Shown here: positions 58,211 through 61,839 of the stretch, piece after piece
How positions within the stretch are numbered: the first letter of the stretch is position 1
Layout of the letters: the number at the start of each line of letters is the position of its first letter
NCBI GenBank assembly: GCA_965222615.1
Contig: CBDCUI010000009.1
Span: 1,053,580 to 1,117,579 of the forward strand
Direction: 5' to 3'
Length of the DNA stretch: 64,000 nucleotides
Source: Gammaproteobacteria bacterium
Lineage (GTDB): Bacteria > Pseudomonadota > Gammaproteobacteria > UBA4575
The notes under the pieces: model-generated
Database searches by the model: none
Told to the model about the DNA's origin: nothing
What the model saw: the letters and a program-made list of their open reading frames with translations, nothing else
Translations under genes and position numbers: made by a program

Positions 58211-58693
58211 ATGGTTTACTTCGAGGAGATTGATATCACTTCTTTATGCTGTGCACTAAACATATACGGCATAGAAATCAATGAGGTCCCTGAAGATATA
58301 CTCATACCTTATAGCTATTGGGGAACACCTGAAGCTGGGAGAAAAAACAATACGCTATATGTACGCTGTGACACGCCTGTTCACTCAATATTGCATGAAA
58401 CCTGCCATTTCGTTTGTATGCCGGAAAAACAGCGCCTTTCCAATAACATTGATGCCGCTGGTAGTAGTAAAGAAGAAAACGCAAGCTGTTATTTGCAAAT
58501 CCTATTATCCGATCACATTGGTGACTTCACACGCGAAATGCATATGCAAAACATGGATGAATGGGGCTATAGCTTTAGACTGGGTTCAGCTACAGCTTGG
58601 TTTTATCAAGATGCCGAAGATGCAAAAAAGTGGCTGCAAGACCAGATGATTATTGATCAATACAGTAATATTACTTGGAAACTTAGAAAATAA
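58211..58693 (+). CDS. Conserved hypothetical protein with an HExxH motif
   Basis: IPYSYWG.PEAG, SILHETCH and MDEWGYSFRLGS. Confidence 0.75.
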   Translation: MVYFEEIDITSLCCALNIYGIEINEVPEDILIPYSYWGTPEAGRKNNTLYVRCDTPVHSILHETCHFVCMPEKQRLSNNIDAAGSSKEENASCYLQILLSDHIGDFTREMHMQNMDEWGYSFRLGSATAWFYQDAEDAKKWLQDQMIIDQYSNITWKLRK

Positions 58694-58749
58694 ACTATGA
58701 TTATTCAGGAATTTAGATAAACTGCTTGTTAAATCCATGTGTTTAAATA

Positions 58750-58778
58750 TTGACATCACTTTAAATTGCTCTTAGCAT
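58750..58778 (+). promoter_or_regulatory. Sigma-70 promoter of the riboswitch leader
   Basis: TTGACA-N17-TAGCAT; the predicted start site (~58785) coincides with the 5' end of the first aptamer. Confidence 0.75.
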
Positions 58779-58785
58779 TCCCTTA

Positions 58786-58836
58786 GGCGCTGATTTGAGC
58801 ACGAGCTTGCGGGCGCTATATAAGTACAGCTAAAAG
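58786..58836 (+). ncRNA. SAM-II riboswitch aptamer 1
   Basis: GGCGCT-GATTT...TTGCG-GGCGCT...ACAGCTAAAA matches the SAM-II pattern; upstream of metY. Confidence 0.82.
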
Positions 58837-58849
58837 CGTGGAAAATTAT

Positions 58850-58883
58850 AAACCCGCTTAAGAAGTACTTAAGCGGGTTTTTT
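58850..58883 (+). terminator. Intrinsic terminator between the two aptamers
   Basis: 13-bp perfect stem aaacccgcttaag/cttaagcgggttt with a 5-nt loop and a T-run. Confidence 0.88.
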
Positions 58884-58886
58884 ATT

Positions 58887-58939
58887 GTCGCTGATTTAAT
58901 TCAACAACTTGCAGGGCGACCAATCAAATACTGCTAAAG
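58887..58939 (+). ncRNA. SAM-II-like riboswitch aptamer 2
   Basis: GTCGCT-GATTT...TTGCAG-GGCGAC...ACTGCTAAAG; P1 differs from aptamer 1 but still pairs. Confidence 0.75.
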
Positions 58940-59007
58940 CGATGACCGTCCTAAAAGCTTCTGGGTCGCGTCACCGCCTAAACCATTAGAAGCTAAAGGC
59001 GGTTAGT

Positions 59008-59451
59008 ATGATGACCGAAATAAACTTCCTTAAAAATACAATTAGACTTGCTGAAAACAACCACTATTTCATCAACTTAGTTGACCCATTAACATCACCT
59101 CGTCTTTTTAGTGATATTGAGGCCATTGCAGCCGTGGCCTGCGCTGAGATTCAAACCCATACTAAGCTTCAGCCCATTTTATTCGAAAGCGCGCTTACTC
59201 AATCACTGCATGAATGTCTATTTCATAACGAATGGTGTGCAAAAAATTCTGAATCAATCGAAGAGCTAGTCAATCAATTGCTACCCAAAGTTAAAAATAC
59301 CCTGCATAATATTTATGCATATTGTAAAGATAATGGTACAAAGTTTGACGAAATAATTAAAACAACTCAACAAGAATGTGACTATGAATTTCTACAATTC
59401 ATTACCAAAATATTTATAAAAGCATACTTAAGAGAGATCCACCATTTTTAA
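59008..59451 (+). CDS. Hypothetical protein, first gene behind the SAM riboswitch leader
   Basis: 147-aa ORF with ATG start preceded by AAAGGCGG; no family recognised. Confidence 0.6.
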   Translation: MMTEINFLKNTIRLAENNHYFINLVDPLTSPRLFSDIEAIAAVACAEIQTHTKLQPILFESALTQSLHECLFHNEWCAKNSESIEELVNQLLPKVKNTLHNIYAYCKDNGTKFDEIIKTTQQECDYEFLQFITKIFIKAYLREIHHF

Positions 59452-59572
59452 AAAACACTAAATATTCACTTTTATGCTGATGTGGCGAAAACCAAAGTAT
59501 TAATGAAAACAAATAAAATGTTTAGGTAGCTGAAATCTTTTTACAGAAATTTCAGCAAAAGGATAACGAATT

Positions 59573-60838
59573 ATGAAAATAGAAACACTTGCAATACATA
59601 GTGGTTATGAACCAGATCCTACTACCAAGGCAGTTGCAGTTCCGATTTATCAAACTACTTCCTATGCCTTTGATAATACGCAACATGGCGCGGATTTATT
59701 TGACTTAAAAGTCGAAGGCAACATCTATACGCGCATTATGAATCCCACAACCGCCGTTTTAGAACAGCGCATCGCTGCGATGGAAGGCGGGGTTGGCGCA
59801 CTAGCCTTATCTTCCGGCATGGCGGCAATTTCCTATGCAATTTTTGCCATCGCTGAGCAAGGAGACAATATTGTGTCTGTCGCCACTTTATATGGCGGCA
59901 CCTACAATTTCTTTGCACACACACTGCCAAAATTGGGAATAGAAGTACGTTTTGTAGATTATCAAGACATGAACGCCATTGCCGCAGCAATTGATGAAAA
60001 TACCAAGGCCGTCTTTTGTGAAACATTGGGAAATCCGGCAGGCAATGTCATTGATTTAGAAAAAACGGTTAAAGTTGCACACGCAGCAGGTGTGCCCGTA
60101 ATGGTAGATAATACCGTCCCTACTCCTTACCTTTGCCAGCCCTTTACATTCGGTGCCGATATATCAATACATTCCTTAACCAAATACATGGGCGGCCATG
60201 GAACTTCAATTGGTGGTGTTATTGTTGATTCAGGAAAATTTCCATGGGCAGAACACAAGCAGCGCTTCCCCATGCTCAATGAACCTGATCCTTCATATCA
60301 TGGAGTGGTGTATACCGAAGCCTTGGGAGAAGCCGCTTATATAGGCCGTGTACGAGTCGTTCCACTGCGCAATATGGGTTCCGCTATTTCACCTTTTAAT
60401 AGTTTTTTAAGCTTACAGGGCATTGAAAGTCTACCTGTACGTATGGATCGACACTGCGAAAATGCGCTAGCAGTCGCTCAGTATCTAGAAAAACATTCCA
60501 ATGTGACCTGGGTAAACTACGCTGGATTACCAACTCACCAAGACCATCATTTAGTACAAAAATACTTTAATGGTCGTGCTTCTGGCATCTTAAGTTTTGG
60601 CATCAAAGGAGGCCTTGATGCAGGCGTGAAGTTTATCGATGCCCTTAAGTTAGTTGTTAGATTGGTAAACATTGGCGACGCAAAATCACTTGCTTGTCAT
60701 CCGGCTACAACCACACACCGGCAATTGTCTAAAGAAGAACAAGCCGCTGCAGGGGTAACTGAAGATTTAGTACGACTCTCTATTGGTATTGAACATATAG
60801 ACGATATTTTGGAAGATATAGAACAAGCCTTGAATTAA
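59573..60838 (+). CDS. metY: O-acetylhomoserine sulfhydrylase (aminocarboxypropyltransferase)
   Basis: PIYQTTSY, IYTRIMNPT, HSLTKYMGGHG (PLP Lys) and NIGDAKSL..HPA.TTH.QL. Confidence 0.93.
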   Translation: MKIETLAIHSGYEPDPTTKAVAVPIYQTTSYAFDNTQHGADLFDLKVEGNIYTRIMNPTTAVLEQRIAAMEGGVGALALSSGMAAISYAIFAIAEQGDNIVSVATLYGGTYNFFAHTLPKLGIEVRFVDYQDMNAIAAAIDENTKAVFCETLGNPAGNVIDLEKTVKVAHAAGVPVMVDNTVPTPYLCQPFTFGADISIHSLTKYMGGHGTSIGGVIVDSGKFPWAEHKQRFPMLNEPDPSYHGVVYTEALGEAAYIGRVRVVPLRNMGSAISPFNSFLSLQGIESLPVRMDRHCENALAVAQYLEKHSNVTWVNYAGLPTHQDHHLVQKYFNGRASGILSFGIKGGLDAGVKFIDALKLVVRLVNIGDAKSLACHPATTTHRQLSKEEQAAAGVTEDLVRLSIGIEHIDDILEDIEQALN

Positions 60839-60861
60839 ATTATATCGTTTCCTACACAAAT

Positions 60862-61839
60862 GTGACTGAATATTATCCTGCACGGATATATCGGAACGGC
60901 CATATAAACACTGTGGCCGCATCGTCTATATTACGCAAATTATACACGCAACGAATTAGCCAAAGCTTTCGAAAACGCAGCAAATCTGTAATCTTAGAGC
61001 TGGCAAATAACATTCGCTTACAAGGTTGGTTAAGTTCTTGCCCAAACAACCAAGAAGTAAATCGCCCGTTAGTCACAATTATTCATGGCTGGCTTGGTTG
61101 CGCTGATTCTGTATATTTACTACCGATTGCAAATAAGCTAGCTCAATTAGGCTTCCGTATATTTCGCTTAAACCTGAGAGATCACGGCGGTACACAACAT
61201 TTAAACAAAGAGCTTTTCCATTCTTGCCGTTTACAAGAAGTGCTAGATGCCATAAAAAAAATTCAATCCCAAGTACCCCATTCCAAATCCTATTTGATCG
61301 GCTATTCACTTGGAGGAAATTTTGCATTGCGTATTGGTGCTCATGCCGAGAATCAAAACTTGAAGATAGCTAAGATATTTTCGATTTGCCCAGTAATGAA
61401 TCCGGAAAATGCGTTGAATAAAACACATAGCATGTTAAAGATTTACACTGATTACTATCTCAGACGTTGGAAACAAATGCTAAAGTACAAGTATCACTTA
61501 TATCCAGATGACTTCGATCTACAAGTTATCAATCAACAACAGACATTAACGGGTATGACAGAGCATTTGCTGTTGCAATACACAGATTTTAGCACTTTAC
61601 AAAGCTATCTAAATGGTTACTCAATTACTGGTGATAGACTTAAAGATTTAACCGTGCCAAGTGAAGTTTTTATTTCCAAAGATGACCCGGTAATCCCTTA
61701 TATAGATTATAAGAATCTACATTCAACAAAGTATTTAAACATCCACCTAAATGATCATGGCGGACATTGTGGGTATTTAAACGGATTATTTGCAATGAGC
61801 TGGATTGATGAACAAATCATCCAGCAACTTAGCAAATAG
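60862..61839 (+). CDS. YheT-like alpha/beta hydrolase
   Basis: HGWLG, GYSLGG nucleophile elbow, DDPVIP and GGHCG. Confidence 0.9.
   Translation: MTEYYPARIYRNGHINTVAASSILRKLYTQRISQSFRKRSKSVILELANNIRLQGWLSSCPNNQEVNRPLVTIIHGWLGCADSVYLLPIANKLAQLGFRIFRLNLRDHGGTQHLNKELFHSCRLQEVLDAIKKIQSQVPHSKSYLIGYSLGGNFALRIGAHAENQNLKIAKIFSICPVMNPENALNKTHSMLKIYTDYYLRRWKQMLKYKYHLYPDDFDLQVINQQQTLTGMTEHLLLQYTDFSTLQSYLNGYSITGDRLKDLTVPSEVFISKDDPVIPYIDYKNLHSTKYLNIHLNDHGGHCGYLNGLFAMSWIDEQIIQQLSK

Follow-up and report, generated by a model that had tools for sequence, protein, structure and literature searches.

The window analysed here is the whole 64,000-nucleotide stretch of contig CBDCUI010000009.1 (assembly GCA_965222615.1), from a gammaproteobacterium of the lineage UBA4575. 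It contains a leader preceding a small open reading frame (ORF) and the methionine gene metY, which we read as a tandem S-adenosylmethionine-II (SAM-II) riboswitch with two mechanisms: a first aptamer would control transcription termination, and a second aptamer would control masking of a Shine-Dalgarno (SD) site. The probability of this reading is, in our estimate, about 0.85; SAM binding, the directions of switching and a relay between two structures, hairpin H1 and helix H2, are parts of it that we infer from sequence. A first-pass annotation of the same DNA had proposed two-layer SAM control, transcriptional plus downstream, built from two SAM-II units. That proposal is supported by model scores, conservation and overlapping structures, and all the elements it listed were found at or near the places it gave them.

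The leader and its two aptamers

The leader begins with the promoter already suspected upstream of the first aptamer, a sigma-70-type site (TTGACA-17-TAGCAT, 58750..58778, on the + strand like all features of the leader) that matches 10 of 12 consensus positions. The predicted transcription start, at about 58785, is the first base of aptamer 1. Identical promoter hexamers precede the leaders of relatives, and a consensus scan of the + strand from 58600 to 59088 found no other promoter-like site. Aptamer 1 (58785..58841) is followed by an intrinsic terminator (58850..58883), aptamer 2 (58886..58945), and a 65-nt platform that reaches to the ATG of the small ORF at 59008 and can mask the SD site of that ORF. 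No terminator-like site was detected by consensus scan on the + strand from 58884 to 61839, and thus none lies 3' of aptamer 2. The arrangement is not a chance one, since it recurs at two further loci of the same genome and in relatives.

From sequence, the leader is predicted to hold two pseudoknot aptamers of the SAM-II class. Aptamer 1, of a subtype that can be written 'GAUUUGA...CAGCUUGCGG', was recognised by two covariance models of our own (R1 and R2, see below) and by a sub-threshold match to the Rfam model RF00521, while aptamer 2, of subtype 'GAUUUAA...CAACUUGCAG', was recognised by R1 and R2 and by covariation. The P1 helix of aptamer 1 consists of 58787-91 paired with 58812-16 (GCGCU/GGCGC), its pseudoknot of 58805-10 paired with 58829-30 and 58834-37, and its 3' extension helix of CAC 58800-02 paired with GUG 58838-40. 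The corresponding parts of aptamer 2 are P1 58887-92:58915-20 (GUCGCU/GGGCGA-C), so that the second element indeed has, as had been remarked, a different yet pairing P1; the pseudoknot of CUUGCAG 58908-14 with CUGC 58931-34 and AAG 58937-39; and the extension helix of 58901-05 with 58941-45. P1 and a CUUGC(AG):(CU)GC..AAAG pseudoknot are formable in both. Both also carry a GAUUU U-rich loop strand and an A-rich tail (AAA), nearly invariant in alignment A2, and these motifs suggest a fit to the ligand-binding triple helix; both aptamers are taken to bind SAM.

Relatives were collected from species-representative genomes with a pattern derived from the core of aptamer 2, which listed at least 116 stretches, of which 80 were taken; four of these 80 loci (L029, L030, L067 and L094) were rejected as chance matches. 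The resulting alignment comprises 97 distinct sequences, 72 of the aptamer-2 type and 25 of the aptamer-1 type, the latter found only through adjoining a pattern match. As a control, the 3' partners of each helix were slid along the alignment. The cells of P1 and the pseudoknot are paired in 97.7% of cases across the 97 sequences (16-51% when slid), and five of the six P1 pairs show changes on both sides. All 72 distinct sequences of the aptamer-2 type, which come from several phyla, share one core. In this type the extension helix is paired in 73% of cells (22-46% slid, 72 sequences) and has 47 double-change cells against 24±5 in shuffles, with none of 500 shuffles reaching its score. For the aptamer-1 type (alignment A1), 70.5% of extension cells are paired, compared with 36-67% when slid.

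Model R1 was built from the 97-sequence alignment and model R2 from 71 sequences, with the whole family of the window excluded to avoid circularity. R1 scores aptamer 1 at 50.8 bits and aptamer 2 at 69.4 bits; R2 gives 46.7 bits (58785-58838) and 66.9 bits (58886-58941), respectively, with the next-best R2 match in the 64-kb window at only 13.1 bits. Across the 3.1-Mb genome, R2 and R1 find the same seven sites, namely three pairs and one single.

Rfam, by comparison, reports only a tRNA in the whole window at gathering thresholds. RF00521 (SAM_alpha) matches aptamer 1 at 24.6 bits (58777-58851, E 0.0019 in a 501-nt scan), its gathering score being 36, and yields 13 matches at E<=10 over the whole genome, none above the cut-off. 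A 136-nt scan of 58875-59010 gave no Rfam SAM-family match to aptamer 2 at E<=10, and none to the SAM-V model RF01826 in particular. To gauge the reach of these models, 18 loci of other organisms were scanned with the same library. At E<=0.1, RF00521 detected none of the 16 aptamer-2-type elements, those of SAR11 included, and found four of the eight of the aptamer-1 type, two of them at more than 36 bits (scores above threshold were 38.4 bits for a first-position aptamer of Planctomycetota and 37.3 bits for one of Crenobacter). RF01826, on the other hand, scores 79 and 77 bits on the true SAM-V elements of loci L031 and L044. A check with covariance models had been proposed in the first-pass annotation, and aptamer 2 does fail those of Rfam, which formally counts as a refutation, but the failure is uninformative since all 16 elements of its type are missed as well. 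Given that these include the SAR11 tandem, the miss is a limit of the model, which appears to be tuned to alphaproteobacterial members. The accessible text of Leyn et al. 2014 (PMC4239095) states that the Rfam profile finds SAM_alpha only in Rhizobiales and Rhodobacterales, and describes a separate 'metXZ' pseudoknot-plus-terminator element in Betaproteobacteria. RF00521 thus misses a widespread SAM-II subtype, and surveys of methionine regulation that are based on it will under-count.

The two proposed switches and the alternative readings

Aptamer 1 probably acts on a choice between terminator and antiterminator in which SAM would favour termination, a direction that we draw from pathway logic. 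The 13-bp terminator that had been noted after this aptamer is present, with a stem at 58850-58880, a loop of 5 nt, a T-run (U-run 58878-83 in the RNA) and a core hairpin of -15.1 kcal/mol. Complementarity between AAGCG (58834-58838) and CGCTT in its 5' arm (58855-58859) had also been pointed out as a plausible antiterminator; this pairing (58834..58859) extends to AAGCGUGG (58834-41) with CCCGCUU (58853-59), at -9.1 kcal/mol, and 4.5% of 200 shuffled terminator arms do as well. It is the core of a pairing that is far stronger and clearer in other phyla, where the aptamer tail GCUAAAGCGAGG is a near-perfect complement of the terminator 5' arm CCCGCUUUAGC and the homologous tail-to-arm pairing reaches -10 to -20 kcal/mol. 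Of 28 distinct tandem leaders examined by script, 26 have a hairpin with a U-run separating their aptamers, and in 14 of these 26, the window included, tail-to-arm complementarity is at or below the 5% shuffle level. The tail 58834-40 serves both the ligand-bound pseudoknot with its extension and the antiterminator. When SAM is scarce, the tail AAGCGUGG would pair with the terminator 5' arm and polymerase would read through; with SAM bound, the tail would be locked into the H-type pseudoknot and the short 3' extension, allowing the terminator to form and transcription to stop at about 58883.

The same principle may apply to the second switch: in each aptamer, the bound pseudoknot captures a 3' strand that the 'on' structure also needs, this structure being the antiterminator in one case and an anti-sequestor hairpin in the other. 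There is moderate support for coupling of aptamer 2 to an SD-masking structure, through a putative relay and in a direction that we propose here. The candidate anti-sequestor, H1 (58939..58977), was identified from folding and conservation in family leaders, and the candidate sequestor, H2 (58945..59003), from folding, a pairing test and an alignment anchored by hand. The 5' strand of H1 (58939-50) starts inside the bound aptamer, on the final base of the pseudoknot, and shares its first seven bases (58939-45) with the pseudoknot and extension of aptamer 2. In H1, an anti-SD segment rich in pyrimidines, GUCC(U), is bound to a G-rich stretch at 58963-66 that mimics the SD. All 14 family leaders have H1 as their minimum-energy fold in the nascent RNA, and its cells are paired in 97.4% of cases as against 26-34% when slid (alignment A3, 16 sequences). 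H2 has ACCGUC 58945-50 and AGCUUCU 58956-62 on one side and AGAAGCU 58988-94 and GGCGGU 58998-59003 on the other, and it partly covers the SD (AAGG 58996-99). H2 cells are paired in 72% of cases (21-46% slid) in A3, in which MAFFT misaligns five of the 16 rows, and compensatory changes become visible in the central stem when it is anchored by hand. The two states of the window are nearly iso-energetic (-25.4 kcal/mol for H1; -24.4 kcal/mol for H2 with 58939-41 blocked).

Without SAM, 58939-50 would form H1, tying the anti-SD segment to the SD mimic and leaving the real SD free. With SAM bound, 58939-45 would be taken into the pseudoknot and extension so that H1 could not close, and the freed anti-SD segment and its neighbour would then pair with 58988-59003 as H2, masking the small ORF's ribosome-binding site (RBS), which would probably lower metY expression too. 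A test in other phyla for a hairpin that starts within 3 nt of the aptamer end was discarded as too loose, since 67 of 73 sequences pass it and so do 658 of 1460 shuffles.

Several observations weigh against this account of the leader. Neither aptamer reaches the Rfam gathering score, and all 14 control genomes likewise yield matches at E<=10 in the same sub-threshold RF00521 search, which makes the RF00521 match alone weak evidence. The tail of aptamer 1 has one extra A in the window. The pseudoknot columns are invariant and show no covariation, being fixed in part by the pattern-based collection; since the training set was gathered with a pattern from the window's own aptamer 2, these columns are uninformative on covariation. 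At the first switch, three family leaders from other loci (L018, L020 and L026) have tail-to-arm complementarity no better than shuffles. At the second, covariation is slight within the closely related family, both for H2 and for H1, where one pair is changed on both sides among 16 sequences. Moreover, nine of 11 folded family leaders pair the H2 strands whether or not the equivalents of 58939-41 are blocked, the exceptions being the window and L012, and plain minimum-energy folding of whole leaders gives no ligand-dependent switch in most relatives. As H2 is the minimum-energy fold in these nine leaders, H1 would have to act kinetically, as a co-transcriptional trap.

It is unlikely that the aptamers are as described but that SAM, by stabilising P1, frees the segment for H1, with translation then set by H1 or by ribosome standby or an upstream ORF (uORF; compare the mechanism reported for Sinorhizobium metA, and Scheuer et al.). 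On inspection, the segment after AAAG in many other lineages does resemble the 5' strand of P1 and could pair with its 3' strand. However, an H1 promoted by SAM would leave the SD open and keep the methionine genes on in the presence of SAM, contrary to pathway logic, and the covarying extension helix puts 58941-45 inside the bound aptamer, in competition with H1. A 15-codon frame runs from an AUG at 58942 to 58989, but the equivalent of this AUG is CUG or UUG in relatives, where the frame varies in length or runs on; a leader peptide or uORF from this AUG was rejected on the grounds that neither start codon nor frame is conserved.

We consider it very improbable that aptamer 2 is not a working SAM-II element at all and is instead a SAM-V, a variant with a different ligand or a duplicate in decay. 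Its failure to match any Rfam SAM model would be in keeping with this, but RF01826, which scores true SAM-V elements at 77-79 bits, finds nothing in it; aptamer 2 is the better-scoring member of the pair under R2; its core is the one that is identical across several phyla, with a P1 and an extension that covary; and it stands alone before metY in relatives. Least credible is a pair of independent units: a small RNA or the upstream gene would simply end at an ordinary terminator, the hairpin 58850-58883, and a separate promoter would serve aptamer 2. One genus (L014, L016, L017 and L021) does have aptamer 2 alone, directly behind the same promoter type. In the window, though, the + strand from 58779 to 59088 is without a promoter-like site, the gap from U-run to aptamer 2 is only 3 nt, and the terminator lies downstream of the promoter and not between the promoter and the end of the upstream gene (58693), while spacing and order are kept across phyla.

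Distribution and regulated genes

The tandem SAM-II leader that we favour extends well beyond the window. BLASTN of 58740-59010 against 41 genomes, its own included, gave matches in 11, and the whole set of aptamer, terminator, aptamer and platform was found at the two further loci of its own genome and in several genera of the family. The close relatives are records labelled Gammaproteobacteria or Thiotrichales, in agreement with the gammaproteobacterial setting that had been assumed. Of the 56 genomes of the family, 20 contain one or more model matches, and nine have pairs about 100 nt apart, amounting to 11 pairs, three of them in the genome of the window. Among the matches listed by the pattern search, the other 76 of the 80 loci belong to Beta-, Gamma- and Deltaproteobacteria, Bacteroidota, Rhodothermales, Planctomycetota and SAR11. 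Two model matches occur in 30 of these 76, with both within about 170 nt on one strand in 29; the partner lies upstream of the pattern-matching element in 27 of the 29 and downstream in two. Tandems were seen in Beta-, Gamma- and Deltaproteobacteria and in Planctomycetota. As the genus with aptamer 2 alone has it at the orthologous metY locus, the transcriptional half is gained or lost as a unit. In SAR11 (L031 and L044), the same aptamer type with a terminator lies directly upstream of an RF01826 SAM-V match of 77-79 bits. One betaproteobacterial genome has three model matches within 18 kb (G073:C1:1006768-1024610), of five in the genome. A lone aptamer in the genome of the window (G000:C8:832305-832357, L028) is a hybrid, joining a first-subtype loop (GACUUGAGC...CAGCAUGCAGG) to a second-subtype translational platform.

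The tandem precedes, as first annotated, an orphan ORF and metY. The first regulated gene is the small ORF (59008..59451, +), which encodes 147 amino acids (aa) of a lineage-restricted family that is predicted to be all-helical. It is followed by metY itself (59573..60838, +), an O-acetylhomoserine sulfhydrylase by PF01053 (474 bits) and TIGR01326 (666 bits, cut-off 495), and by an alpha/beta-hydrolase gene (60862..61839, +; Pfam Abhydrolase_1). The hydrolase is probably in the same operon as metY, since no terminator-like site intervenes on the + strand. It cannot be recognised as a MetX: the best-matching NCBIfam model, PRK10985, stays below its cut-off (84 bits, cut-off 267). The hydrolase might still supply the homoserine acylation step.

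The 147-aa protein matches no Pfam or NCBIfam family. Its relatives form 32 unnamed clusters among 5.8 billion proteins, of 145-172 aa apart from one 100-aa fragment, and share conserved ALACAE and EC/YD.EFL motifs. An AlphaFold model is all-helical (mean confidence score, pLDDT, 76), and structural searches returned no convincing relative (best E 0.076 with Foldseek against the PDB; best Z 4.6 with VIA-align); the best Atlas score, 0.84, is a lead only. At every locus seen, the family member is preceded by a SAM-II element.

The seven aptamers of the genome precede four units: the small ORF with metY and the hydrolase, metF-metH, a secreted protein with a rhodanese, and a paralogue of the small ORF. 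The last of these (G000:C8, L154:4789-5253, minus strand) is behind the single aptamer. The tandem at G000:C7:799232-799389 precedes metF and a full-length cobalamin-dependent metH (L153:485-5114), with a remnant-like 66-aa ORF between the leader and metF. The tandem at G000:C9:161682-161836 (minus strand) is followed by a 246-aa protein (L152:4377-5117) and then by a rhodanese-domain protein (L152:3952-4380). The 246-aa protein has a signal-peptide-like N-terminus and no Pfam family, and homologues of 242-246 aa follow tandems in L018 and L022.

Elsewhere, among the matches listed, the 71 first downstream ORFs include eight metY, one metF and 10 MoxR-type AAA+ ATPases by Pfam (11 by BLAST clustering), with 47 belonging to no Pfam family. 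The MoxR-type loci (L035, L053, L064, L072, L074, L078, L081, L082, L083, L089 and L096) are from Betaproteobacteria, Bacteroides, Rhodothermales and a Thiohalobacter metagenome-assembled genome, and carry the same SAM-II subtype. In a Bacteroides locus, the genes after that for MoxR encode a VWA protein, a MetK-like protein of divergent sequence and an amidohydrolase of the FGase family, and the SAM-II element adjoins a tRNA gene; the operon was read in L155 (652-5805) and L156. This gene content would explain the presence of a SAM sensor there.

It is possible, if rather doubtful, that the pair is an old two-part module of two distinct, co-inherited SAM-II subtypes, each with its own output device, whose order has been kept from Planctomycetota to Gammaproteobacteria, whose first half has been gained and lost at the metY loci of the family, and which, in this lineage, also controls the small helical protein family of 32 clusters. 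In keeping with this, the tail of the 'GAUUUGA/CAGCUUGCGG' subtype mirrors the terminator arm, and the 'GAUUUAA/CAACUUGCAG' subtype is read out via a relay hairpin whose start lies within the aptamer. Two observations speak against a strict division of labour: the hybrid at C8:832305-832357 joins a subtype-1-like loop with the translational platform, and SAR11 and some Betaproteobacteria couple the second subtype to terminators. If such a module exists, the methionine/sulfur regulon would gain the small helical protein family as a new member.

Comparison with known SAM-II systems

With the SAM-II family (RF00521), for which Corbino 2005 is reportedly the reference, the window shares the H-type pseudoknot, the U-rich loop strand, the GCUAAAG tail, the 3' extension helix and the methionine genes downstream; it differs in that both of its aptamers are below the gathering score of the family. 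The accessible part of Huang & Lilley 2018 (PMC6061858), in which the SAM-II structure of Gilbert 2008 is cited, describes a short helix between the P1 loop and the bases just 3' of the pseudoknot in SAM-II and SAM-V, and this extension is present and covarying in both aptamer types of the window. SAM-II is listed in Gammaproteobacteria in the portion of Barrick & Breaker 2007 available to us (PMC2258182). The first-pass annotation had taken it as established that SAM-II usually acts singly on translation; this is at odds with the accessible passages of PMC2258182 and PMC6061858, which link most SAM-II elements to transcription terminators. The idea of a spermidine variant was dropped, since its source paper concerns variants of SAM-I and is not relevant.

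The closest precedent is that of Sherlock et al. 2022 (RNA Biol 19:1059, PMC9481103). In the text accessible to us, 44 tandem SAM-II riboswitches are reported, in some of which a terminator follows the first aptamer and the second apparently controls the RBS, together with 149 SAM-II/SAM-V tandems of like arrangement, the Pelagibacter case being attributed to Poiata et al. 2009. As in those tandems, the window has two SAM-II aptamers on the same strand behind one promoter, the first with an intrinsic terminator, in a leader before sulfur/methionine genes, and as far as that text goes there is no difference in kind. The RBS control ascribed to second aptamers may have a counterpart in the window, where no terminator follows aptamer 2, a conserved helix could mask the SD and a competing hairpin overlaps the aptamer, albeit with thin covariation. 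The complement of tail and terminator arm and the H1/H2 relay were not found in the available text of PMC9481103.

The window tandem is therefore real and well conserved, and its architecture is one already catalogued in 2022, given those 44 examples. It leaves the understanding of how such switches work unchanged. What it adds is a clean, triplicated natural case of two-step riboswitch control in a lineage of Gammaproteobacteria that yields nothing under standard annotation, and explicit pairing schemes for both expression platforms. It also points to putative SAM regulation of a small, uncharacterised family of proteins and of a MoxR/VWA/MetK-like operon present in other phyla.

The first-pass annotation had named a SAM-II/terminator/SAM-V tandem of Pelagibacter, and we recovered this published layout in the two SAR11 loci. 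The logic is the same, with transcription controlled first and translation second, and the first SAR11 aptamer has a core like that of aptamer 2 of the window and a tail complementary to its own terminator arm. The two systems differ in the second position, where the window has a SAM-II and not a SAM-V aptamer, as judged by the lack of an RF01826 match. They also differ in how the SD would be reached: in Pelagibacter it lies inside the 3' helix of SAM-V, whereas in the window it lies about 55 nt past aptamer 2 and would be masked via a relay hairpin.

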